From: a virus
Virus record (IMG/VR): IMGVR_UViG_3300045988_081724
Length of the DNA: 61,211 nt
Strand: one strand, 5' to 3'
Shown here one piece after another: positions 1-50,951 of this stretch. A program made the translations under genes and the position numbers. Within the stretch, counting starts at the first letter, position 1; each line of letters begins with the position of its first letter. The notes beneath the pieces were generated by a model. That model was not told the DNA's origin. It saw only the letters and a program-made list of their open reading frames with translations, and searched no databases.

Positions 1-61
1 ACCTGCGCGGTCTTTCAGCCACGTGATCATAGTCACATAGCGGAAGCCCCATGCCTCCATG
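1..61. repeat. Terminal direct duplication (copy 1), identical to 61151-61211; most likely circular-assembly overlap
   Basis: Exact 61/61 nt identity between the window start and end. Confidence 0.9.
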
Positions 62-16599: not shown

Positions 16600-16640
16600 A
16601 AGTAAAAACGCCCTATCGATTGATAGGACGTTTTTAATCA
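16600..16640. terminator. Bidirectional terminator separating the tail genes from the lysis cassette
   Basis: Hairpin ACGCCCTATCGATTGATAGGACGT with A-run and T-run. Confidence 0.6.
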
Positions 16641-16662
16641 TGTGTATCTACGCTACGCTACA

Positions 16663-17343
16663 TCAGGTCGTAGGCGTAGTGCCACCGCCACCTGTGATTG
16701 CTTGATAAGGACTTGCTGTAATGTACGCCGGAGTCGGGTACGGACGAAGCTGATTAACCAGTGCGGCGCTCTGCATCACTTGAGACAGATTAAACGTTGC
16801 AGACTGGAGATCGCGGTCACGGTCTGCCAGTTTGTCACGAAGTTCCTGAATCTGATTGGAGAGCATGAGCCCACGGGTCTTTTCAGCCTCTTCGTGAATA
16901 GCGGTCTTAATCTCGCAAGTGTTCTTATAGTTCTCTGCCTTAACGCTGTCAATATTGCGGTTAGTTTCGCAGCAGCATTGTTGTTGGGCAAAGCGGTTCT
17001 CCGCAAGCTGACTACCGAGAGCATAGTTCCCTTGCATGACAGTTTTTTCAAGTCCAGCCTGTCCTTGAAGAATAGTGTTGTTCAGGGAATACGCAGAATC
17101 GGCAAGTCCGTAGCCAATTCCACGAATTTGCCCCATCTCGTCTTGGTGATTAAAACCTGCCTGCATCTCTGCCTGTGTCAGCCCGGAACGGTTTCCAAAA
17201 CCGCCAAAGCCGCCACCTCCCATCAAGGCGAAAATCACGATAATCCACATGAACCACATGCCGCAGCTGTCGCCCCATCCGTTTCCGCCTTTTTCGTTCA
17301 GGTTCCAAACGGGGGCAATACCTTCATTACCTTCCATTTTCAT
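16663..17343 (-). CDS. Glycine-rich membrane protein (hypothetical)
   Basis: TM segment WFMWIIVIFALMGGGGFGGFG. The opposite-strand ORF 16642..17361 is an antisense shadow. Confidence 0.4.
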   Translation of the reverse strand: MKMEGNEGIAPVWNLNEKGGNGWGDSCGMWFMWIIVIFALMGGGGFGGFGNRSGLTQAEMQAGFNHQDEMGQIRGIGYGLADSAYSLNNTILQGQAGLEKTVMQGNYALGSQLAENRFAQQQCCCETNRNIDSVKAENYKNTCEIKTAIHEEAEKTRGLMLSNQIQELRDKLADRDRDLQSATFNLSQVMQSAALVNQLRPYPTPAYITASPYQAITGGGGTTPTT

Positions 17344-17376
17344 ACCTCCTTCAAAACTTGATATATAAAACCCCAG

Positions 17377-17649
17377 CTAGAGGTTTAAGCCAAAAGAAGA
17401 AAGGAAGTCTGAAAACTGCTTTTCGTTCATGCCACGTTGTCGAGCCAAGTTTTGTGCGATGACCTTTAACTCATCATCACTTTTGCCTTTCCCCATCTGC
17501 ATAGCCCGTCCCATCAGCGGATTGCTATTAGCCATGTTGCTTAACATCGCCATGGGGTTTTGTGCTTGCTTTAGCATTCCGATCAGTTGCATTGGATTCA
17601 TTTTCTGCGCTCCTTCCTTGTAACTCTCGAACCATCGCTTCCAATTCAT
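17377..17649 (-). CDS. Hypothetical protein (90 aa; overlaps next ORF)
   Basis: ORF. Confidence 0.3.
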   Translation of the reverse strand: MNWKRWFESYKEGAQKMNPMQLIGMLKQAQNPMAMLSNMANSNPLMGRAMQMGKGKSDDELKVIAQNLARQRGMNEKQFSDFLSSFGLNL

Positions 17650-18050: not shown

Positions 18051-18308
18051 CTAAAAATATCCCAGTTTTCTTCCAGATTTGTACATCTTTTTAGAGATAC
18101 GCCGTGCAATCCTCGCCACACTCTTCCTCGTAAGCGACTGGTCAATAGCAATCTCCTTAAAAGTCATCCCTTCGATAAGTCTCATGCGTATGTATTTCAA
18201 CTCGTCGGGTGTAAAGATGGCGGCTTGAAGCATCGCGTCAAGCTCTTCACGGTCAACCGCTTTTAGCCATTCTTTAACCACCCTTCGCTCAGGTCCCATG
18301 ATAATCAC
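18051..18308 (-). CDS. Small sigma-70 region-4-like HTH protein (candidate late-gene regulator)
   Basis: RMRLIEGMTFKEIAIDQSLTRKSVARIARRISKKM fits the sigma region 4.2 pattern. Confidence 0.5.
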   Translation of the reverse strand: MIIMGPERRVVKEWLKAVDREELDAMLQAAIFTPDELKYIRMRLIEGMTFKEIAIDQSLTRKSVARIARRISKKMYKSGRKLGYF

Positions 18309-36865: not shown

Positions 36866-37678
36866 TCATTCCTCAAAGCCAGGAATCACCGGAACAAATT
36901 GGCAATTACAATAAATGAGTTCTCCCGGCTTTACATATTCACCTACGTCAGAATCATACAGACCTGTATCAAGATCAAACAATTCGCCGTCAAAATCAAC
37001 ATGCGTGTTCCTGCTTGAGTGTTCTCCTGCGACGTGAATCCATCTACCCTTTTGCAAGCCATATGACTTTGCGTTAGCAATAGCCATGGTTTGGGTGGTC
37101 TTATTCATCTGATCTCTTGCAATGAGTGCCGCCCGTTCTGCGCTAATCTCTGCCATATCAGAAAGCTGCTCCGTAAGGTATCCTATATCTCTACCTTTGG
37201 CGTATGCGTTCATGATGGTCGTTTGAGCTTGTGCGGCAGCATACTGCGGTAACGTGTGCCAAAGGTCTACGCTATCTTTGACTGCTTCCTTTAAGACTGC
37301 TTTTTGATACCCTTCCTCAACATTTCGGTGAACGGTGAATCCGTACTCATCCAGTTTTTGGAGAATAATCTTGTCAGCCCTTCGATACGTCTTTCTTGAC
37401 ATCCATTGGGCAAGCTCTTTCGACAACTCATCAAACTTTGGATACCATTTCATTCTTGACTTTTTCATAAGACGAATGATAAACCGTCTATCAAGTCCGT
37501 CCATAGCCATATGAGGATTTCTGCTATCCATAGCTATACGCTTCTCATATTCAGGCTTGACCTGCTCGATAATGTCCTTATACATTGCTCGAACCAGTGC
37601 TTGCATCTTTCGCCTCATATGAATTTCGGTAGCCAAATCGGGTGCCGTTCGTCCGATGCGCCGTTTATCCCTTTCCAT
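36866..37678 (-). CDS. Minor head protein (phage Mu F-like / SPP1 gp7 family)
   Basis: 270 aa downstream of the portal. Confidence 0.65.
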
Positions 37679-39137
37679 TTTTCATCGCCTCTTGCTCTTC
37701 GGGACTATACCCCTCAATATCAGGTTCAGGAATTTTTGATGGATCAAGCGGCGTGTCATAAGCTACTAAATCGTCATATCCGCTATTCTTATCTTGAATG
37801 AGCTTATTTCTAATTTCATCTGCTCCGACTACGCCGAGACTTGCATAGATCGAATCGGTTTCAGCTTTGACTTTGTTTGTGTTCGCTTGTGCCATGTCAG
37901 CTTCATCTGACAACGGGGCAAATTTAAACTCAATATCGCTATCGATGCTTCCGTAAAGGTTGAGCTGAATAATTTCGAGAATCTTTTGAATGTTATCGCT
38001 AAACATTTGCTCTTGAAGGGATGCTATGTTGTCGTAGTGGTTCTTCATATCACTTTCACCCGTGGCATTGAATCCAGCAGGTGACATGCCCCACATCTTC
38101 GTGGCAGGTTCATTGAACATGGCAGCAACGTATTCCATTGCCTGCCTTACAATGTCGATAACCCCCGAAAGGGTGTTATTAAAGATAGCCATGTCTTCGG
38201 TGTCTTTATCGATAACAGCCATTCCTTCATAATCCCAATTATTCACGAAATACTGGCAACGGTTTTTCAGGTCAAGGTCGCCCCCGCCTGTCAAAACATC
38301 CTGCATGTCAGTTTTCAAAATGACGAGGCTGACCTTCTTTAATAACTTGCTTGCGCTCTCCCTGTCTGCGGTGTAGTGACTGACTGCATCAAGAACTTTT
38401 TGTGACAATGACATGCCAAAAAAGTTGTAAGCAGGTTTCAGCATATCTTCCATCTCGCTTTCTCGGAAGAATAGGAATCTGCTTGAGTGTACGGGAACGC
38501 CCTGAACATACCATACCGACGGCTTATAGTAGTTTTGTGATAATGGGTTAGTAGCGTTATATACACCGGGATAAACCGTATATGGATCTATTAACTTAAA
38601 GCCTTTCAGTGAACCAATAGGGAACGTCCTAGCATCGAATATAAGCGGATTAACCAGCTCGCTAGTTTCTTCTCCTGTATCAATAAAAAGGAGGCAGCCT
38701 CCGAGATACCCATTCTTTTCAGCTGCCATTCGGAACAGCTTCTTGACTTTGAACTTTACCAATGCCCGTGTGATTTCATTGATCGAATCATTATCTTCAT
38801 TGTCATTATCCCCGGTCCTAACCACTTCACCCCACTTACGAGTCATTTCTTTGGCTCTCATCTCAACCCCGCTTCGAATGAGTGGATTTTGGGATAATCC
38901 AGTTAGCATCGTGTATCCGGGGAATGACGGCAACCCTTCCTCTGATATTCCCTCTATCGTGTGCGAAAGCAATGTCCGTACAGGGGCAAAGCATTCATCC
39001 ATTGCCATTTTCTGCTTCCTGCTGAAATCAGGCTTGCCAATCGTGTCCGGGATTTGATACTTTTCAATCCTTGTATTAAATGCGCCATCCTTTCCCGGTT
39101 TAGTCCATCGAGACAAAATGTCAAATCGAATTTTCAC
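37665..39137 (-). CDS. Portal protein
   Basis: 490 aa immediately downstream of the terminase large subunit. Confidence 0.75.
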   Translation of the reverse strand: MKIRFDILSRWTKPGKDGAFNTRIEKYQIPDTIGKPDFSRKQKMAMDECFAPVRTLLSHTIEGISEEGLPSFPGYTMLTGLSQNPLIRSGVEMRAKEMTRKWGEVVRTGDNDNEDNDSINEITRALVKFKVKKLFRMAAEKNGYLGGCLLFIDTGEETSELVNPLIFDARTFPIGSLKGFKLIDPYTVYPGVYNATNPLSQNYYKPSVWYVQGVPVHSSRFLFFRESEMEDMLKPAYNFFGMSLSQKVLDAVSHYTADRESASKLLKKVSLVILKTDMQDVLTGGGDLDLKNRCQYFVNNWDYEGMAVIDKDTEDMAIFNNTLSGVIDIVRQAMEYVAAMFNEPATKMWGMSPAGFNATGESDMKNHYDNIASLQEQMFSDNIQKILEIIQLNLYGSIDSDIEFKFAPLSDEADMAQANTNKVKAETDSIYASLGVVGADEIRNKLIQDKNSGYDDLVAYDTPLDPSKIPEPDIEGYSPEEQEAMKNGKG

Positions 39138-39155: not shown

Positions 39156-40568
39156 CTATCTCAAAATAATTGGATTGATTTTTATGCCTGTCCGGTTCAT
39201 TTTTTCAATAACACCAGTCAGTGCATCCTCTGCGTCATCGTGGGCGTTTTTCCCTTCCCGTTGGAACTTGTGGAGGTGGTCGTAGAACTCTGTCCACTTG
39301 TCTTGCCAGTTGGCGGGGAAAAAAATATGATCCATAACAGCCGTACTATTAGACAGTATCCTTGCCCTTTTGTTTTCACCTTGATGAAACCAACAAATCT
39401 TACACCGATGGTAGTGATAAGACTGTTTGAGTTGCTTCTCTACAGCCCTTGCAAAGCCTCGTCCACCGTTGTTTGATTCAATGTCGGCTATTCGGACATT
39501 AAAAGAAGCGAGGCGTTTTGCCGTCTCGCTCTCTGTGTATTCCATGGGCTTCTGCGTGTATAGAACATCTAAAACATAGGCATCGTTTTCATAAACACCA
39601 TAGATGATATTACAAAGGTAGTCGCTGCCTTCGTCGGCAGTATCGCAGTAGGATTTAACTGATGTAAATAACGGATAGCCAGCCATATCTCTTGGCACAT
39701 CCGTATAGGTTTTGAACGATGTATATAAACGCCCCTTGATGTCGATAGGTTCTTGCTGATAGTTAGCTGACCAAATGTCCAATCCCATAAGTCGCTTCTT
39801 TTGGTCGCAACTTTCTTTTGATAGGATGGACTCACATAGCATCGATCCGTCTTTTTGAACGGCGGTGTAATTGATATGTTCAACCTGTTCAGGCTTGAAA
39901 TAATCAAGCACTCTTCCTGCGAGGTCATCGCTTGCCCACCGTGTCATAATGACGATAATCTTTCCGCCCTCTTCTAAACGAGAAAGCATCGTGTTAGTAA
40001 ACCAATCCCAGTGCTTTTCTTTTACCATGTCGCTATACGCTTCTTGTGAGGACTTTATTAAATCGTCAATAACGAGATAGTCAGCACCGAATCCCGTAGC
40101 AGATCCTTGCGGAGATGTAGCGAGATAAGAATTGTAGTATCCATCAATGCTCCAAAGGTTCATTGCTCCATCGCCACTTTTGATTTTTACATCGGGAAAC
40201 ACATCACTATATACTATCTTATCCGCATCGCCCTTGATTTCTGAAATGTCATCACGAACTAGCTTGGAAAACCTCGTCGAAAGAATATCATTATATGAGC
40301 CCATCATAATCTTTTTGTCAGGGTAGTTACCTAGTAGCCATTCAATAAAATGGGACGCAGTAAAGCTCTTTCCGTGGCGCGGCGGCATATTTACTACCAT
40401 TGCTTTTTTATCCGACTTTGTAAACTCTTGTAGTTTCTCGCAAAATTCTTTGAGGTGTGTCCTTTCAGGACTGTAGAATTTAGGATTTTTTACACGACAA
40501 TAGAACCACAAAAAGCGCCTACATGCTTCGGTTTTAAAGTCGTAAACGCCTTGTGCTTCGTTCATCAT
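39156..40568 (-). CDS. terL: Terminase large subunit
   Basis: Walker A MPPRHGKSF; Walker B ADYLVIDD; TRWASDDL. Confidence 0.9.
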   Translation of the reverse strand: MMNEAQGVYDFKTEACRRFLWFYCRVKNPKFYSPERTHLKEFCEKLQEFTKSDKKAMVVNMPPRHGKSFTASHFIEWLLGNYPDKKIMMGSYNDILSTRFSKLVRDDISEIKGDADKIVYSDVFPDVKIKSGDGAMNLWSIDGYYNSYLATSPQGSATGFGADYLVIDDLIKSSQEAYSDMVKEKHWDWFTNTMLSRLEEGGKIIVIMTRWASDDLAGRVLDYFKPEQVEHINYTAVQKDGSMLCESILSKESCDQKKRLMGLDIWSANYQQEPIDIKGRLYTSFKTYTDVPRDMAGYPLFTSVKSYCDTADEGSDYLCNIIYGVYENDAYVLDVLYTQKPMEYTESETAKRLASFNVRIADIESNNGGRGFARAVEKQLKQSYHYHRCKICWFHQGENKRARILSNSTAVMDHIFFPANWQDKWTEFYDHLHKFQREGKNAHDDAEDALTGVIEKMNRTGIKINPIILR

Positions 40569-41092: not shown

Positions 41093-41671
41093 CTATTCTT
41101 TCAGCATGTTTAAAAATCTTTCTTGGTTTTCCATACTGTTGAATATTCCGCTTGTCTCAAGTGTTACTGTTTTAGTTCCAGGCTTCTTGATACCTCTAGC
41201 GGTTACGCATGAGTGTTCTGCCTGTATTCTTACCGCTACGTCATTTCCTACTACCTTTGTCATGACTTCAAGAATGTCTTTCCCGAGTCGCTCCTGTAGT
41301 TGTAGGCGCTTTGCGCACATTTCCGCAATGCGTGCTACTTTTGATAATCCAATAACCTTGCCATTCGGCATGTAACCTACATCGACTTTCATGTTGTACA
41401 TTAGAGCAAGGTGGTGTTCGCAATATGAGAATACAGGGATTTCTTTTATTATAACGATACCTTTTGAGGTGGTAGGAAAGCTCTTACCAAACATTTTGGC
41501 AATATCATCGTTACTGTATTTTTCCCCTTCCCATACTTCATTTAGCATCTTTATTACTCGCTTAGGAGTTTCTTCAAGCCCCGGGTGTTTTTGTGGGTCA
41601 ATTTTCAATGCTAGTAGTAACGCAAAAATGGCGGCTTCTGCCGCTTTGTTATCTGTTTCCATGTTATACAC
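41093..41671 (-). CDS. folE: GTP cyclohydrolase I
   Basis: Motifs SYCEHHL and ...RLQLQERL... Confidence 0.85.
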   Translation of the reverse strand: MYNMETDNKAAEAAIFALLLALKIDPQKHPGLEETPKRVIKMLNEVWEGEKYSNDDIAKMFGKSFPTTSKGIVIIKEIPVFSYCEHHLALMYNMKVDVGYMPNGKVIGLSKVARIAEMCAKRLQLQERLGKDILEVMTKVVGNDVAVRIQAEHSCVTARGIKKPGTKTVTLETSGIFNSMENQERFLNMLKE

Positions 41672-42293
41672 CTCTTTCCATGGGATTCCATATAAATTTG
41701 TGAAGCTGGAGCTGAATACGCCAGTTTTGTAAATTGTGCTTCTTCATATACGCTACAATGTCTCTCGGCTCGATTTTACCGAACACCGGGCTTATATATA
41801 CCTGCGCTTTTGGGTCATACGTGCTATACACGTTATGGGCTTGATCGAGATCGTCCTGACTTCCTACTACGAATTTCAGTACATCCTGTTTCCTCAGTGC
41901 CCAAAAATTTTCCTCTAACATATGCTTGCTCATGCCGGAGCACCCACACTTGTAATCAATCGTAAACCATGCATTTTTATGTCGCATGTATGGGATAATT
42001 AAAATGCTACCGTTTGTCTCAATGTTAACATCATGCTCCGTAAGCCTATCCAGTAGCCCATGAACATCTTGAAATAACGGTTCTCCGCCTGTTAATGTAA
42101 CATTCTTGTAAGATACCTTTTTCACAATATCTTCGATTTCCATTTCTTCCCCTTCATTGAAGGTATATATAGAATCGCAGTACGTGCATCGAAGGTTACA
42201 TCCAGTTAGACGAATAAAGGACGTAAGCTCTCCAGCTCTACGCCCTTCTCCATCAATGCTATCAAAAATTTCGTTAACTTTAAGTTTCTTCAT
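41664..42293 (-). CDS. queE: 7-carboxy-7-deazaguanine synthase (radical SAM)
   Basis: CNLRCTYCD cluster near the N-terminus; size 209 aa. Confidence 0.8.
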   Translation of the reverse strand: MKKLKVNEIFDSIDGEGRRAGELTSFIRLTGCNLRCTYCDSIYTFNEGEEMEIEDIVKKVSYKNVTLTGGEPLFQDVHGLLDRLTEHDVNIETNGSILIIPYMRHKNAWFTIDYKCGCSGMSKHMLEENFWALRKQDVLKFVVGSQDDLDQAHNVYSTYDPKAQVYISPVFGKIEPRDIVAYMKKHNLQNWRIQLQLHKFIWNPMERGV

Positions 42294-42615
42294 AGATAGC
42301 CACGTTCCCTTCGCTTTCCTGTACCTGTACCTTTACGCAGTACGGAACGTTGTCATGAATCCATTTGGCAATGTTTTCCGCAGTTGGGTTCATGTTTGGC
42401 AGAACCTCATTTACATACTGATGATCTAAGTTCTCCTTTACTGCTTCACTAATGTGCTTGAAGTCTACGACCATGCCATTTTCATTGAGCGTTTCTGCTT
42501 TGCAGGTTACGTAGATAATCCAGTTATGCCCATGAAGATTACTGCACTTGCTTTTATATGGAAGTGTGAGCTTGTGTGCGCCAGCCACTTCCAGTCTTTT
42601 TGTCACTGTGTACAT
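42280..42615 (-). CDS. queD: 6-carboxy-5,6,7,8-tetrahydropterin synthase
   Basis: CSNLHGHNW motif; 111 aa. Confidence 0.8.
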   Translation of the reverse strand: MYTVTKRLEVAGAHKLTLPYKSKCSNLHGHNWIIYVTCKAETLNENGMVVDFKHISEAVKENLDHQYVNEVLPNMNPTAENIAKWIHDNVPYCVKVQVQESEGNVAIYEET

Positions 42616-42616
42616 T

Positions 42617-43324
42617 TCAGTCCTCCAATGCAGGGTCTTTTACACCATTTTTACGAAAAGCATTTGCTCTATCTATGCACGTTCCGCACGTCCCGCACGG
42701 CTTTTCTTTTCCTTCGTAGCAGCTCCAGGTTAGTTTATAAGGTGCATTCAGCTTTAATCCGACAGCCACCACACCGGCTTTATTCAACTTCGCAAGGGGG
42801 AATTTTAGATGAACTTTGCCATAAGTGCCAATTTTTATAGCTCTTCCCAACGCTTGCAAGAAAGGTTCGCTACAATCTGCATAAGCGTCTCCTGCTGCAT
42901 CATCTGCGTGTGCGCCGATATAAATATCAACCTCATCCTCCTCGAATAGACTTGCCGCGAGCGATGCAGCTGTCGAGAGCATAAGACCATTGCGGAACGG
43001 TACATAAGTTGAAACTTTGCCTTCTCCATTCTTGGCAATCTGCTCGGCATAGCTCTCGTGTATAATTTCTTCCGTGGAGCCCTTAAGAAGGGAGCAATTC
43101 GAATACTGGAAAATAGCAGAAAGATCAAACTCATAGTGCCGTACATGGTAGTACTCCGCAACCTTGCGTGCCGCAAGGATTTCCTTTTCGTGCTTCTGCC
43201 CATAAAAAATAGAAGCAGTCACTACATTTTCAGCACCTAATTCTTTAACTGCAATAGATACGCAAGTTGTGGAATCTACGCCACCGCTAGATAAAACAAT
43301 GGCTTTCTTATTTATTAAGTTCAT
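42617..43324 (-). CDS. queC: 7-cyano-7-deazaguanine synthase (start MNLINKK at 43324; the ORF extends to 43432)
   Basis: PP-loop SSGGVDS; C-terminal zinc site CGTCGTC. Confidence 0.85.
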
Positions 43325-43790
43325 GAATATATTCTTCTTTCCGATTTTTAACGAGCCCCAAATTATCCCCAGCGTTTGCAAAAGGCTTAATGCTGATGCC
43401 ACCCCTAGGATTGAACAAGCCATAGACCTCAATATATTTAGGGTCGAGCAATTTTTTTAAGTCTTTCATAATCATATTTACGCAATCTTCATGAAAGTCT
43501 CCGTTATTTCTGAAACTAAAAAGATACAGTTTTAGTGACTTGCTTTCGACAAGATAATTGCGCGGAATATAATTGATTATGATTGTTGCAAAATCCGGCT
43601 GTCCTGTTTTTGGGCAGAGACTTGTAAACTCTGGGCAATGTAAGTGAACCACATAATCATTGTCGGGATGTTTATTTTTAAATTTTTCTAATAAATTTGG
43701 ATCATACTCTTGCCTATATATGGTTTTTTTGCTTCCTAAAGAGTTAACGCCTTCCAACTCATTTAAGGTTCTCATAGATAATTCCTCCAC
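43308..43790 (-). CDS. queF: NADPH-dependent 7-cyano-7-deazaguanine reductase
   Basis: [15 protein letters not shown] and ESKSLKLY motifs. Confidence 0.8.
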
Positions 43791-44590
43791 TTTTCTTCAT
43801 ATTCCCTTTGCATCGCCATTCCTCTCTTATAAGCTTCAAGTTCAACTAGATCTCTATTCTTGGCGATTCTTATCCAGTCGCTATCAATTTTTCGCCCATC
43901 CATCACTGCATAGCGAACAGGCGAACTCCACGAACTACTATCAACAAAATCAAAAGGAACTTTATCTAACACATCACGGCGTGTCATGCCTAGACAATGC
44001 ATTTTGCAGCCATATTGTTTGGCTCTCTTCAAAAACATCAAATATTGGTCGTCTTTAATATCCTCATTTTTGAATCCTGATACGGCTATAATCTTTCCTT
44101 GGAAATCACGACACATTTTATTGAACTCCGCAATGCCGCGACCTTTGTGCCAAACTGGAATGATTTTATTTGAAACGTTCATTAGCTTTCTTCGCAATTC
44201 CAACACGCGCGGATAGCCAACAATAGCATCAATATCTATTTCAAAAAATCCTAAAATGTTCGGTTTGTCGAAAGTTTGAATAAATTTCGCATATTTGTCT
44301 ACGTATGTCTCCCATTCTACCCGCTTCCCTTTCTGGAAACTGTGCGCACCACTGTCAACTAGCATAAGTTCACTATTATCTCGGATACAAGTCGCACGTT
44401 TTAAAAAACCTGAATTTTTCAAATAGTAATAAGATACTAGATTATATTTAAGACGAAATGGCAAGTTTTTAACGTCTTTCAGCCATGAGTTTTCTGGACG
44501 TATCCCATGCTCTAACGAAGATAAAAATATTTTCATTAGAGCACCTTCTTGAAAAATGCTTTGCCCGCAATATGATGACACTTGGGACAC
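43772..44590 (-). CDS. dpdA: tRNA-guanine-transglycosylase-like protein (DpdA-like 7-deazaguanine DNA transglycosylase, inferred)
   Basis: [12 protein letters not shown] resembles the TGT DSGGFQ motif; context downstream of folE-queEDCF. Confidence 0.55.
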
Positions 44591-45042
44591 TCTAGCCTAT
44601 CCTTGCTTGGTTCTTCATAGGATTCTTCATCTAATTCGTGTACATCATCCCATTTAATGCTATCTCCTACCTCAAAGCCAAAATCACCGAGGTCTATATT
44701 CTCTATTCCTTCAATTTCTAAATTGAGTTTTTCAAAATCCCATTCTGCTAGTTCGTTTGTTTTATTGTCCGCCAGTCTAAAAGCCTTGATTTGTTCATCT
44801 GTTAAATCGTTAGCAATGATACATGGTACAGTTTCCATGCCTAGTTGAATTGCTGCTTTCAGTCTCGTATGTCCGCATACAATCACATCATTTGAATCAA
44901 TAACGATCGGCACTTTGAACCCAAACTCTCGAATTGAGTTTGCTACAGCTTCCACGGCGTTGTCGTTCTTTCGCGGATTATTTTCATACGCTTTAAGTTC
45001 GCCGACCTTCTTCTCTACAATTTCCATAATTCGTCCCTCCAA
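44536..45042 (-). CDS. ParB-like nuclease domain protein (possible DpdB-like partner)
   Basis: VIVCGHTRLKAA ParB/Srx motif; RBS GGAGGGA. Confidence 0.65.
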   Translation of the reverse strand: MEGRIMEIVEKKVGELKAYENNPRKNDNAVEAVANSIREFGFKVPIVIDSNDVIVCGHTRLKAAIQLGMETVPCIIANDLTDEQIKAFRLADNKTNELAEWDFEKLNLEIEGIENIDLGDFGFEVGDSIKWDDVHELDEESYEEPSKDRLECPKCHHIAGKAFFKKVL

Positions 45043-45050
45043 TAAAAAAC

Positions 45051-45080
45051 CTACGACTAAACGCCGTAGGAGTTAAATTT
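45051..45080. terminator. Rho-independent terminator at the end of the tRNA array, 10 nt upstream of the ParB-like/late operon start
   Basis: Hairpin CCTACG-N9-CGTAGG with TTTTTTATT on the minus strand. Confidence 0.6.
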
Positions 45081-45244
45081 GACCTGCCCTGTTTTCCGAT
45101 ATCAAAGAAAATCATTGGTTTAGCAGCAAAAAACATAAGATAAAAGTATTAGGCACAACATATCGACTTATGCTTTGTTACAAGGCAGGTGTTAAGTTGT
45201 AATGCGGTTTCACATGGATGCTAATGTATGCTAGACCGCGCTAG

Positions 45245-45314
45245 GGTTAGGAATGGATTTGAACCATTATTTGGCGATTTCAGGTCGCCCGTTTTACCAT
45301 TAAACTACCTAACC
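45245..45314 (-). tRNA. tRNA (70 nt, no encoded CCA); anticodon loop CCUGAAA, apparent anticodon UGA with non-canonical C33 and a short variable arm; identity uncertain
   Basis: Manual cloverleaf: acceptor GGTTAGG/CCTAACC, D-arm GTTT-AATGGTA-AAAC, anticodon stem GGCGA/TCGCC, T-arm AATGG-TTCAAAT-CCATT. Confidence 0.5.
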
Positions 45315-45426
45315 ATGCAGTGCCTCTAATGTACACTCATCATGAATACATAAGAGGCAAACATTGAGGGGGTGTAAACGGTGGATCAGTCCCTCTCCAG
45401 TGGAGAAACCTTACACTCATTTACAT

Positions 45427-45490
45427 TGGTGAGCAGCACTAGATTTGAACTAGCAAAGTCTTTTGACCGCAAATTTACGGTTAGCTACTC
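45427..45490 (-). pseudogene. Truncated tRNA-like element: duplicate of the 3' part of the adjacent tRNA-Tyr (T-arm, acceptor, CCA) with no anticodon arm
   Basis: Shares GTCAAAAGACTT-CTAGTTCAAATCTAGTGCTGC-CACCA with 45512-45594; 64 nt. Confidence 0.4.
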
Positions 45491-45511
45491 TATACTCCCT
45501 AGTCGCATACA

Positions 45512-45594
45512 TGGTGGGCAGCACTAGATTTGAACTAGTGAAGTCTTTTGACTCAGACTTACGGTCTGTCCTTTAGCCGCTTGGATAGCTGCCC
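45512..45594 (-). tRNA. tRNA-Tyr(GUA)-like, class II (long variable arm), anticodon loop CCGUAAG with C33
   Basis: Acceptor GGGCAGC/GCTGCCC plus ACCA; D-loop AAGCGGCTAAA; T-arm CACTAG?TTCAAAT. Confidence 0.55.
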
Positions 45595-45629
45595 ATGTAT
45601 TGTAAACCATTTTCGCGATACTACGAAAA

Positions 45630-45705
45630 TGGTGGGGACAGCAGGACTTGAACCCACATCGAAGCGGTTATGAGCCGCTTGCTTTACCATTTAAGCTATA
45701 TCCCC
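45630..45705 (-). tRNA. tRNA-Met(CAU) (elongator type; could be Ile2)
   Basis: 76 nt including CCA; anticodon stem AGCGG/CCGCT; loop CUCAUAA. Confidence 0.7.
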
Positions 45706-45717
45706 AAAGACGCATTG

Positions 45718-45780
45718 TGGGTTTGGAAGGACTTGAACCCTCGACACAAAATCGCTCTAGCCAACTGAGCTACAAACCCA
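45718..45780 (-). ncRNA. 63-nt tRNA-like element with acceptor, D-arm and T-arm but no anticodon arm
   Basis: GGGTTTG-TA-GCTCAGTTGGCTAGAGC-GATTTTGTGTC-GAGGGTTCAAGTCCTTC-CAAACCC-A. Confidence 0.4.
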
Positions 45781-46543
45781 TATGCAAGGCAAGCTCGTGG
45801 CTCACCTTGCACTTATCATTCGGAGGAAACCGAATCTTCATGCCGAGCAAAACAGGTCGTCGCCCCTCTTTTGCTCATGTAAAGGGTAAAACGGGTAGTT
45901 AGCCGATTTCACCCACATATGCGCTCTACGCCCGCACAAGCGCAGAGCTAACTTTCCTTAGCCAAGAAACATTTAAGCGGCGCAGCCTAGTTTTTCCCAA
46001 TGACGGCTACACTTCATGAGTACGATAACCCGATAGTACGTCCGGCACATGTGAACCCATCAAAAGTTCGCTTTAGAATTAGTTGAGAGCGTGTTCACAC
46101 TGTTGCTTCCCCTAACGTTGGGAACTTTTAGCATCCACGACTGCTCCAACACTCCGCAGCAGAGTATTTTCCTTTTTACGTTAGACCCGAAGGAAGAAAC
46201 GCCGTTTTTCTGTGCATGAGCTTAACGATAACTCTCCACTCCGGTAAGTGGAACCCCCTGTTTAGAGCCTTAGAAACAGCACTAGTACCGTCCCATGCAT
46301 GCAGGGACACGCTTTTTCGTAGGTGTAGCGCGCACCGGACACTTTTAAGGTGCTCCGAACCATCCTTCCATTTTCGTAAGGAAACTTTAGCACGCCACTC
46401 TATCGCTGTGGATTGCGCTCTGTCCTTTATACTGATGACATGCTGTCAGCCGCACGCTACATTTTTGCCATGGCATGTTGTGCGGAGCTGGTGGGAGTCA
46501 TTTATACTCGCCCCCCGGAGAGTGCTGCCTTTTCGGCAACCAT

Positions 46544-46617
46544 TGGCAGGGAGTGATGGAATCGAACCATCGATGCAGGAGTCAAATTCCCGTGCCTTAC
46601 CTCTTGGCGAACCCCCT
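46544..46617 (-). tRNA. tRNA-Gln(UUG)
   Basis: 74 nt including CCA; anticodon stem CGGGA/TCCTG; loop AUUUGAC; T-arm GATGG-TTCGATT-CCATC. Confidence 0.7.
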
Positions 46618-46723
46618 ATAATTCCATGTAGTTATTGCTACATGGAGTGATACCGCAACGATATTACGCGCTCCCATGCGGTTAGGATACGCCCCTATAT
46701 TTTAAGCCACTTGGGTAGGCTAT

Positions 46724-46815
46724 TGGCGGATACAGTAGGATTTGCACCTACGAGCGGCTTACAATCCGCTTCTTGCTTAGCAGGCAAGCACCTTCGACTA
46801 CTCGGTCATGTATCC
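46724..46815 (-). tRNA. tRNA-Ser(GCU)
   Basis: 92 nt; anticodon stem CTTGC/GCAAG; loop CUGCUAA; long variable arm; CCA encoded. Confidence 0.7.
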
Positions 46816-46816
46816 A

Positions 46817-46905
46817 TGGCGGAAGCGGTAGGATTCGAACCTACGCCCAGTTTCCCAGCTCTCTGTTTTCAAGACAGTTCCCTTTGACCTCTTGGGTACG
46901 CTTCC
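46817..46905 (-). tRNA. tRNA-Ser(UGA)
   Basis: 89 nt; loop CUUGAAA; long variable arm GAGCTGGGAAACTGGGC; T-arm GTAGG-TTCGAAT-CCTAC; CCA encoded. Confidence 0.7.
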
Positions 46906-47099
46906 ATGCGACAAGGTGTGTTGCTTCACCTTGTCAGATTTGTGGAGGTGTCATGCCACTAGGCATGACCACAAGGAAGAAAGCCAATTCTTTTTTTTGC
47001 GGAAACGCTTAGAAGTATTCTCGCTTGATAGAATGGAACTCGCAAATGCTTATTCGTTGGCTACAATAATTATAACATATGATTATACCGTAAATCTTC

Positions 47100-47171: not shown

Positions 47172-47212
47172 CACAATAAAACAGCCCAGTTATTCTTGGG
47201 CTGTTTTATGTC
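47172..47212. terminator. Bidirectional terminator downstream of the HTH gene
   Basis: Hairpin ACAGCCCAG-TTATTC-TTGGGCTGT with T-runs. Confidence 0.65.
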
Positions 47213-47262: not shown

Positions 47263-47661
47263 CTACTGGATTGTATTTAAATACTTAATACATTTTTCTT
47301 CACTATCAAACTCTATTTCGCTAGGCGTTCCAGTTCGATTATCGAAGGCAATATATTTGTCATTATCTTCGCAGAAAAATAGTCCCATTTGGTTATTATT
47401 ATTTCGGATCTCCTCTAGCTCGCTCGGTACAACGCGAATATATCCTACTTTTTTTAGTTCCATGGCATATCCTAGACAAGCCATCATTTCTAAAAACTTC
47501 TTGACTGTTACATCCTTTTGCAATACAAATCTCTGCCTGCACGCTTGACGGGTTAACCCACTACGTCTTGCCAGTACTGATAAACCGACTTTTTCTTTCT
47601 CCATGTATTGCTGCACAATTTCTGTTCCTGTTTTCATAATAAATCCTCCTGTTAAAATCAT
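47263..47661 (-). CDS. HTH-domain protein (putative transcriptional regulator)
   Basis: KVGLSVLARRSGLTRQACRQRF HTH-like segment. Confidence 0.4.
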   Translation of the reverse strand: MILTGGFIMKTGTEIVQQYMEKEKVGLSVLARRSGLTRQACRQRFVLQKDVTVKKFLEMMACLGYAMELKKVGYIRVVPSELEEIRNNNNQMGLFFCEDNDKYIAFDNRTGTPSEIEFDSEEKCIKYLNTIQ

Positions 47662-50678: not shown

Positions 50679-50770
50679 CTTTGTTTCCTCCTGTTATTTA
50701 CTAACTATTTCCTTTGTTGTATATATATTACTACATTTCCCACGATTTGTAAAGTGATTTATTGTCTTAG
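50679..50770 (-). promoter_or_regulatory. Conserved promoter+leader cassette copy
   Basis: Near-identical to 12784-12870 through the -10 element; diverges upstream. Confidence 0.65.
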
Positions 50771-50797
50771 CTGGCATTTTCCCGATACAAGTTTGCA

Positions 50798-50832
50798 ACA
50801 AAAAAGCCCATCAAATTTTGATAGGCTTTTAT
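50798..50832. terminator. Terminator-like imperfect hairpin
   Basis: AGCCCATCAAA-TTTGATAGGCT with T-run on the minus strand. Confidence 0.45.
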
Positions 50833-50926
50833 CGTTCTATACATCTGTATGGAAATGGTTCACTTTAAAAACATAGCATCCCCTATGCCCTAAATGTGAA
50901 CTATTTCCTTACATTTGTATAGAACG
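50833..50926. repeat. Long imperfect inverted repeat (about 44-bp arms at roughly 80 percent identity around a 7-nt CATCCCC centre)
   Basis: Left arm cgttctatacatctgtatggaaatggttcac... against the reverse complement of the right arm cgttctatacaaatgtaaggaaatagttcac... Confidence 0.75.
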
Positions 50927-50951
50927 ATAATATCATTTTACGCATCCCCTT

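Follow-up and report, generated by a model that had tools for sequence, protein, structure and literature searches.

In a segment of about 765 nucleotides (nt) within a minus-strand array of transfer RNA (tRNA) genes of the IMG/VR virus record IMGVR_UViG_3300045988_081724, we found what is, on balance, probably the gene of a genuine, processed non-coding RNA (ncRNA) restricted to one lineage of temperate Dialister phages. Coordinates refer to the whole stretch of 61,211 nt that was analyzed (the window). On the minus strand, the segment fills the 767 nt (45780-46546) that separate tRNA-Gln from a truncated tRNA-Lys. A preliminary description, made from the sequence alone, had marked out 45781-46543 as a non-coding, GC-rich and hairpin-dense stretch embedded in the tRNA array and had suggested an unannotated structured RNA. 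Its coordinates are right, being those of the gap between the tRNA-like gene at 45718-45779 and tRNA-Gln, both on the minus strand, and the feature is real, correctly spotted and reasonably interpreted, but it was overstated as uniformly hairpin-dense. The strong folding signal is confined to the 3' ~230 nt, and the 5' 540 nt fold at the level of shuffled sequence. Positions in the RNA (p) are given such that the window coordinate equals 46547 - p.

45780-46543, minus strand: candidate ncRNA, about 765 nt
45780-46010, minus strand: 3' domain with seven clustered hairpins, reaching to within 1-3 nt of the next tRNA

The segment is non-coding. No credible open reading frame (ORF) is present on its minus strand, where the longest are 44 and 43 amino acids (aa), in agreement with the earlier remark that none exceeds 60 aa. 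On the plus strand one frame is open over 137 codons, and the corresponding 144-aa ORF (46216-46650) overlaps tRNA-Gln, lies antisense to all of its neighbours and has no match in Pfam or PHROG; it had already been judged not to look like a protein. The "protein" relatives of this ORF are 74-83 % identical while the corresponding DNA is 96.7-99 % identical, because 1- and 2-nt insertions and deletions (indels), located in relatives at RNA positions 31, 85, 126-127 and 305, shift the reading frame, which is not conserved. A full HMMER scan of 1.84 billion representative proteins with the ORF translation returned the same locus only. The GC richness also holds: GC content is 49.8 % in the segment versus 41.9 % in the window, and the top-ranked 763-nt windows of the entire stretch all lie here. 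In this respect the segment resembles tRNAs and differs from other intergenic DNA, with values near 50 % along its entire length.

Folded as a whole, the segment is modestly more stable than shuffled sequence (minus strand, z = -1.96; plus strand, z = -1.12; from 20 shuffles only). The signal resides in the 3' 231 nt (45780-46010), where the minimum free energy (MFE) is -94.2 kcal/mol versus -70.7 ± 4.6 in shuffles (z = -5.12), and none of 200 shuffled sequences was as stable. Sliding windows in the 3' domain gave z = -5.25 and -3.06 on the minus strand versus -3.6 and -1.5 on the plus strand. An 11-nt long-range complementarity (45950-45960/46377-46387) is at chance level, as about 2.4 such pairs are expected. 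A candidate internal repeat was rejected as insignificant (local alignment score 25 vs 23 ± 3.4 in shuffles). The hairpins that could be followed among the copies of the segment are as follows.

46525-46539, minus strand: 5' hairpin UUGCC-GAAAA-GGCAG (p8-22), folding in 8 of 9 sequence variants
46366-46383, minus strand: hairpin p164-181, stem UUCC/GGAA with a 10-nt loop
46236-46251, minus strand: hairpin CCACUU-ACCG-GAGUGG (p296-311)
46049-46100, minus strand: hairpin HA, an 8-bp outer stem (p447-454/p491-498) enclosing a smaller stem-loop
46018-46041, minus strand: hairpin HB (p506-529), GUACUAU-CGGGUU-AUCGUAC
45923-45948, minus strand: hairpin H3 (p599-624), 11 bp
45884-45914, minus strand: hairpin H4 (p633-663)
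45782-45812, minus strand: terminal hairpin H7 (p735-765), 13 bp

Three of the inverted repeats quoted in the preliminary description are real hairpins inside the segment (45782-45812, 45923-45948 and 46236-46251); the fourth, GTCATGCC-ACTA-GGCATGAC, lies outside it, at 46950-46969 in the leader before the first tRNA.

Changes that preserve pairing were seen in most of these hairpins. In the two related copies L153 and L154, five substitutions in HB repair a U.C mismatch, add two pairs and retain two by wobble, such that an imperfect 7-bp stem in the window becomes one of 9 bp (-13.5 kcal/mol). An alternative pairing proposed by RNAalifold at HB (columns 525-534) also changes on both sides, from GC to AU. 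In the same two copies, two adjacent pairs of H3 are altered on both sides (C-G to U-A and U-A to C-G), other copies carry four one-sided wobble changes in H3, and in three copies a G to U change breaks a pair. HA was predicted independently from the window and from L153; its outer stem shows G.U to A-U (L153) and C-G to U.G (L034), and its inner stem C-G to U.G and A.C to A-U, the latter gaining a pair. All three one-sided changes in H4 keep pairing (G.U to G-C, C-G to U.G and G-C to G.U). In H7 pairs are kept by four changes and broken by one or two.

Toward the 5' end, the base-of-stem pair of the 5' hairpin varies among copies. The p296-311 hairpin has a 1-nt deletion in its loop (L037) and a closing pair that changes from U.G to U-A (L155). 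The p164-181 stem, with a single U-A to U.G change among the copies, is retained under four loop sequences (UUACGAAAAU, CAGCGAUAGA, CAGCGAUGGA and AGCGAUAUC); one of these loops occurs in L156, where p98-165 is otherwise largely replaced and identity over p9-190 is 77 %. Three independent copies (L132, L139 and L155; window 46366-46419) carry the loop CAGCGAUAGA, which exactly matches the loop region of the hairpin before it (p139-148), with a 3-nt AUA insertion close by. A small gene conversion seems to have made this replacement, a hint that the loop's sequence matters. Sequences of the pattern GCUAAA(A)GUU(U)CC are found again at 46379-46391 and 46119-46132.

The structured strand is the minus strand, because many stem G.U pairs would be C.A mismatches on the plus strand. 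Mirrored to the plus strand, the minus-strand structure is only 85 % canonical, and the G.U to G-C or A-U changes in H3, H4, H7 and HA are sensible for a minus-strand RNA only. In the RNAalifold consensus of the near-identical copies, pairing is preserved by 19 variant pair types and disrupted by 13, with 12 versus 3 in the 3' domain. Here, with the consensus assumed to be ancestral, U-to-C and G-to-A changes favour G.U pairs (Fisher p = 3e-4). In alignment A4, with a structure derived from the same sequences, three pairs in six cells were altered on both sides, compared with 0.9 pairs in shuffles (17 of 500 reach three), 1.0 ± 0.8 cells (0 of 500 reach six) and 0-2 pairs in slid controls. Indels are located in loops or linkers. 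Overall, several hairpins are apparently conserved at the RNA level on the minus strand, and a global fold is unsupported. As to covariation among relatives, which had been proposed as a check, the comparison gave these three both-sided changes, from one lineage, with long-range pairs unsupported.

The comparison draws on six IMG/VR contigs, four human-gut metagenome contigs and a dozen Logan/ENA contigs, the last reached through translations of spurious ORFs. Identity to the window is 77-99.8 % across copies and 96-99.8 % in most. The diverged copies L153-L156 were likewise found through spurious-ORF translations. Over its whole length the segment of L153 and L154 shows 93.7 % identity, with differences clustered in p440-625 (about 22 % divergence there), as if this patch had been imported from a more distant relative. 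Given the diverged patches in L153 and L156, more distant relatives should therefore exist beyond the reach of the tools used. A search of GenBank phages by BLAST gave matches to tRNA-Gln only and then nothing down to E = 10, and a pattern scan of 185,579 GTDB species genomes gave zero copies. Spurious-ORF translations searched against IMG/VR, JGI metagenomes, GTDB and protein sets of 5.8 billion and 1.84 billion sequences led to one lineage only, and exact 20-25-mers from conserved and lineage-specific parts to no further IMG/VR contigs. Relatives of two neighbouring genes, the DpdA-like (41-57 % identity) and terminase (51-65 %) genes, have neither a tRNA array nor a copy of the segment, and those of the upstream 132-aa protein are near-identical only and yielded no new copies. 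A two-motif pattern, GCTAAARKTTCC...GCTAAARKTTCC, derived from the rejected internal repeat, gave three extra IMG/VR matches, all of which are unrelated coding or promoter repeats.

In all 20-odd copies the segment is full-length, with indels of only 1-3 nt, and its 3' end is directly abutted by a tRNA or tRNA stub. The tRNA genes around it are less constant: tRNA-Tyr is variable, and tRNA-Lys may be intact, truncated or absent. tRNA-Lys(CUU) is intact in L037/L041, L102 and L153; in L134 it is absent, and tRNA-Met abuts the segment instead. The truncated gene in the window lacks 12 nt of the anticodon arm and retains the acceptor, D and T arms. In L042 and L102, which have structural genes 93 % identical to those of the window, the module of tRNAs and RNA (46907-45079) lies in wholly different flanks, and it therefore moves as a cassette.

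The minus-strand tRNA array spans 45244-46905, with six tRNAs found by Rfam and five by ARAGORN. Its parts, from the upstream limit to the end of the operon, are listed below.

47176-47209, no strand assigned: hairpin and T-run terminator (terminator scan), ending the upstream gene 47263-47661 and forming the upstream operon limit
47069-47077, minus strand: candidate extended -10 promoter TGTTATAAT, read from the sequence, with TG at 47077-47076 and TATAAT at 47074-47069
46906-47062, minus strand: operon leader with two hairpins, at 46950-46969 and about 46908-46935
about 46820-46905 (start also given as 46817), minus strand: tRNA-Ser(UGA), ARAGORN, Rfam tRNA 55.1 bits
46727-46815, minus strand: tRNA-Ser(GCU), ARAGORN, Rfam tRNA 56 bits
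46544/46547-46617, minus strand: tRNA-Gln(UUG) with encoded CCA, ARAGORN, Rfam tRNA 53.9 bits; the 5' boundary of the RNA lies at its 3' end
45718-45779, minus strand: truncated tRNA-Lys, 62 nt, Rfam tRNA 46 bits
45630-45705, minus strand: tRNA-Met(CAU), ARAGORN and Rfam
45315-about 45630, minus strand: variable array part with tRNA-like remnants
45244-45314, minus strand: last tRNA of the array, anticodon UGA, 71 nt, ARAGORN, Rfam 67.3 bits
45050-45070, minus strand: intrinsic terminator at the operon end (terminator scan), an 8-bp stem followed by TTTTTTATTG

Array and segment together would form a single transcription unit, judging from the promoter-like element between bracketing terminators. 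The element TGTTATAAT is kept in the most diverged copy (L156), where an adjacent TATAAT-like hexamer is mutated; a consensus scan, for which both hexamers are required, gave no minus-strand promoter of the two-hexamer type. The junction of tRNA-Gln and the RNA reads ...CCCTGCCA|ATGG.

Several minor features of the array were also observed. The 109-nt spacer between tRNA-Ser(GCU) and tRNA-Gln (46618-46726) is conserved and contains a perfect 11-bp hairpin in the 46625-46652 region, CCATGTAG...CTACATGG, which may be a further processing element. The variable part holds two diverged repeats of ~60 nt (45422-45481 and 45508-45565) that resemble tRNA remnants, and it carries an intact tRNA-Tyr(GUA) in the relatives L001/L039, L131 and L132; ARAGORN, at the 90 % threshold only, calls an odd 83-nt tRNA at 45512-45594. 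The last tRNA (45244-45314) is called Ser by ARAGORN, yet lacks the long variable arm expected of a bacterial tRNA-Ser; the array has a normal tRNA-Ser(UGA) in addition, the one that ends at 46905.

On CRISPR evidence, the host is taken to be Dialister (Negativicutes). A spacer of an uncultured Dialister metagenome-assembled genome (L146) matches window 18108-18139 at 30 of 32 positions. In addition, contig L139 contains a type I-F CRISPR array with the repeat GTTGACTGCCGCATAGGCAGCTTAGAAA, and the identical repeat occurs in Dialister genomes. This contig consists of tRNA-Ser, tRNA-Ser, tRNA-Gln and RNA positions 1-199, followed directly by the CRISPR array, and looks like an assembly chimera joined via a spacer that matches the segment (window about 46348-46379); the segment itself is therefore apparently targeted by a host CRISPR system. 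L153 is a 379-kb bacterial contig from a Hadza gut in which the phage is integrated beside queA, two spoIID genes and ruvB/ruvA, and we therefore regard this as a temperate phage of human-gut Dialister. The integration neighbourhood lies at 15038-20411 of L153, and the attachment site should fall near window 50700-50950.

From the sequence we infer transcription, processing sites, any global fold and a trans-acting function, which could fit together as follows. The RNA would be part of one minus-strand transcript that also holds six or seven tRNAs and runs from the extended -10 promoter near 47070 to the terminator at 45050-45070, and the tRNA-processing machinery would release it from this precursor. 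Maturation of the 3' end of tRNA-Gln would generate the 5' end of the RNA, and a cut by RNase P at the 5' end of the abutting tRNA or tRNA stub would generate its 3' end, in which case the truncated tRNA-Lys might be kept precisely as a handle for RNase P. The compact hairpin cluster of the 3' ~230 nt would protect the new 3' end, and upstream of it several conserved local hairpins would be linked by A-rich stretches. Once freed, the RNA might have a trans-acting role in lytic growth or in induction of the prophage, scaffolding a host or phage factor or serving as a decoy for it, a role parallel to that assumed for GOLLD and ROOL, the RNAs of tRNA islands. The suggestion of a processing substrate has anatomical support only, in that a tRNA or tRNA-like gene abuts each end of the segment in every copy.

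The proposed release of the 3' end has a counterpart in MALAT1-mascRNA, where RNase P cleavage at a tRNA-like structure lying downstream gives a long ncRNA its 3' end. The segment is similar in that a tRNA, or a stub with acceptor and T arms and no anticodon arm, abuts its 3' end in every copy. It differs in that the setting is a bacterial tRNA operon, cleavage is only proposed, and a hairpin cluster takes the place of the triple-helix end protection, of which none is apparent here.

The segment was also compared with known RNA families. In Rfam 15, cmscan at gathering thresholds found tRNAs only. At E <= 10, both over 2.2 kb and over the 786-nt stretch alone, the only extras were at chance level (uup, RybB and Plastid-ycf2), and no model of GOLLD, ROOL, OLE, raiA, RNase P, transfer-messenger RNA (tmRNA), 6S, signal recognition particle (SRP), ribosomal RNA (rRNA) or introns matched. 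ARAGORN likewise gave no tmRNA. The preliminary description, which could not recognize RNase P, tmRNA or group I/II intron cores by eye, was right in this, and its suggestion of an intron-like element has no support, since no group I or II intron model matches at E <= 10 and the tRNAs on either side are complete. H3, taken together with its 5' flank GGAAAGUUAGCUC (45923-45957), partially matches the uup RNA motif (RF03060) at 19.7 bits (E = 0.39); membership was rejected because this score is below the gathering threshold of 36.8. No tRNA-like unit was found within 45781-46543 by Rfam (E <= 10) or by ARAGORN at the 100 % and 90 % thresholds, and at 70-80 % ARAGORN made only spurious calls, on both strands and in spacers as well.

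By context the RNA resembles GOLLD and ROOL, and it belongs to neither. GOLLD, which we take to be RF01998, and ROOL, presumably RF03087 and about 580 nt long, are among the most conspicuous bacterial RNAs without a known function. Both are large phage or prophage RNAs of unknown function that often occur at tRNA islands and, as recent cryo-EM work showed, form RNA-only cages (PMC12286853), a homo-oligomeric nanocage (14-mer) in the case of GOLLD. GOLLD is about 800 nt long, occurs in phages and prophages in or beside tRNA arrays, and sometimes has tRNAs inside the RNA itself (PMC12286853), which is comparable to a segment of 765 nt in a prophage tRNA operon. By contrast, the segment gives no match to the GOLLD covariance model even at E <= 10; only simple hairpins are supported in it, where GOLLD has a conserved pseudoknotted 3' half; and it is found in a single Dialister phage lineage, whereas GOLLD is widespread. 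ROOL, too, is an abundant phage or prophage RNA near tRNA islands, in gut and rumen Firmicutes, with no known protein partner (PMC12286853); the segment differs in having no match to its model and in that two thirds of it fold at chance, compared with an intricate multi-pseudoknot fold in ROOL. It is possible, though less likely than not, that the segment represents the first member of a third family of large prophage tRNA-operon RNAs, unrelated to these two and belonging to phages of Negativicutes (Dialister). Such an RNA would be freed by the enzymes of tRNA processing and would serve during infection as an RNA-only or RNA-protein scaffold or decoy, as is assumed of GOLLD and ROOL.

An unannotated non-coding RNA is still the best reading of the segment, some of whose hairpins carry compensatory or wobble-preserving changes, but two thirds of its length are without any thermodynamic or comparative sign of structure, and a number of observations weigh against a large functional RNA. 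Neither the central 270 nt nor the 5' 266 nt surpasses shuffles in stability (z = +0.21 and +0.17), and in these parts the variant pair types that keep pairing number 7 and those that break it 10, with the predicted long-range pairs unsupported. The excess of both-sided changes in A4, measured on a structure taken from the same sequences, comes entirely from one lineage (L153, L154) and perhaps from just one recombination patch. Predicted stems are not poorer in polymorphic sites (whose mean pairing probability is 0.65 vs 0.61 overall), and when transitions in the 3' stems are counted without regard to direction, 11 are compatible and 3 are not (expectation about 0.58), which is marginal (p about 0.09). 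Divergence of the segment, about 1 % and 6 % in L153, resembles that of neighbouring genes and spacers, giving no rate evidence of purifying selection. No homologue was found outside one narrow phage lineage, and the copies are too similar for a proper covariation test.

Several of these points would be expected if the segment were a spacer with processing or insulating hairpins, which might guide or time the cleavage of the tRNA precursor, block exonucleases or yield small RNAs, the rest being tolerated filler that is degraded after processing. This explanation, which we consider possible though rather unlikely, accords with a thermodynamic signal confined to 45780-46010, with comparative support for local hairpins and none for long-range helices, with a substitution density like that of flanking spacers, and with patches that could be replaced by far more diverged sequence (p98-165 in L156 and p440-625 in L153). 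However, phage genomes are compact, yet 540 nt were kept full-length while adjacent tRNA genes were lost or truncated; GC content is near 50 % beyond the 3' part as well; and conserved hairpins are also present in the 5' and central parts (p8-22, p164-181, p296-311, HA and HB). Compensatory and wobble-preserving changes in several hairpins, which are unexpected in junk, weigh against the idea of a non-functional leftover, made of decayed tRNA genes or a captured foreign fragment riding with the tRNA module. The array does hold decaying tRNAs (the truncated tRNA-Lys and the remnants in 45315-45632), the distribution is narrow, and conservation is not above that of the flanks; but the segment contains no tRNA-like unit (Rfam E <= 10; ARAGORN 90 %), has no match to rRNA or other Rfam families, to GTDB genomes or to GenBank phages, and has suffered no sizeable deletion in any copy. 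We therefore judge a leftover to be improbable.

The remaining explanations are much less probable. Racrs are RNA anti-CRISPRs, solitary repeat mimics in phages (PMC10651486), and RacrIF1 mimics the stem-loop of the type I-F repeat, which the 5' hairpin of the segment resembles; such a hairpin could titrate Cas6f. Over p6-22 the match to the host repeat core ACTGCCGCATAGGCAGC is 13 of 17; copies of the L037 type, with the exact CUGCC/GGCAG stem, reach 15 of 17, and Dialister spacers do target the phage. Nevertheless, 13 of 17 does not exceed the maximum that chance gives in a 61-kb window (12-14 in 30 shuffles); the C6-G20 pair, essential to Cas6f binding (PMC10651486), varies among U.G, C-G, C.A and U-A; and neither the 5' nor the 3' flank of the repeat is mimicked. 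Racrs are small solitary units, and here only 17 of 765 nt would be explained, which makes this origin very improbable. Hardly more credible, and if anything less so, is a very divergent GOLLD or ROOL missed by the Rfam models: the GOLLD-like size and the position in a prophage tRNA array, as described for both families, would fit, but permissive cmscan of the 786-nt stretch and of 2.2 kb gave no GOLLD or ROOL alignment up to E = 10, and strong helices, as an "ornate" RNA should have, are missing from the 5' two thirds. As for a protein-coding gene, whether the 144-aa plus-strand ORF or a small minus-strand ORF, the 137 open codons are all that speaks for it; an ORF that is antisense to every neighbour, overlaps tRNA-Gln, belongs to no family, is broken by 1- or 2-nt indels in relatives and has relatives at the same locus only, with minus-strand ORFs of <= 44 aa, leaves this a negligible chance.

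If the segment does encode a processed RNA, it would be a third sequence-unrelated RNA in this niche, and the niche itself (co-transcription with tRNAs and release by RNase P) would seem to be what matters; phages would then have filled the tRNA-operon RNA niche more than once. Deletion and induction experiments are feasible, given a common and culturable human-gut host genus, a defined prophage and a host confirmed by CRISPR. Should the segment merely be a processing spacer, it would show the extent of padding in phage tRNA operons.

Gene calling over the whole phage genome placed nearly all genes of the window on the minus strand. Directly downstream of the tRNA operon is a 7-deazaguanine DNA-modification cluster (window 41093-45042). 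Relatives exchange parts of this cluster, and L153 additionally contains FolE, QueE and QueD. The genes identified here are listed below.

37665-39137: portal
39156-40568: terminase
42617-43432: QueC, 7-deazaguanine DNA-modification cluster
43308-43790: QueF-like protein, 7-deazaguanine DNA-modification cluster
43772-44590: DpdA-like transglycosylase, 7-deazaguanine DNA-modification cluster
44536-45042: ParB-like (ParB/DpdB-like) protein

Next in GC content within the window, at about 49.5 %, comes 16600-17400, where long ORFs of the two strands overlap (plus strand, 16642-17361; minus strand, 16663-17343).

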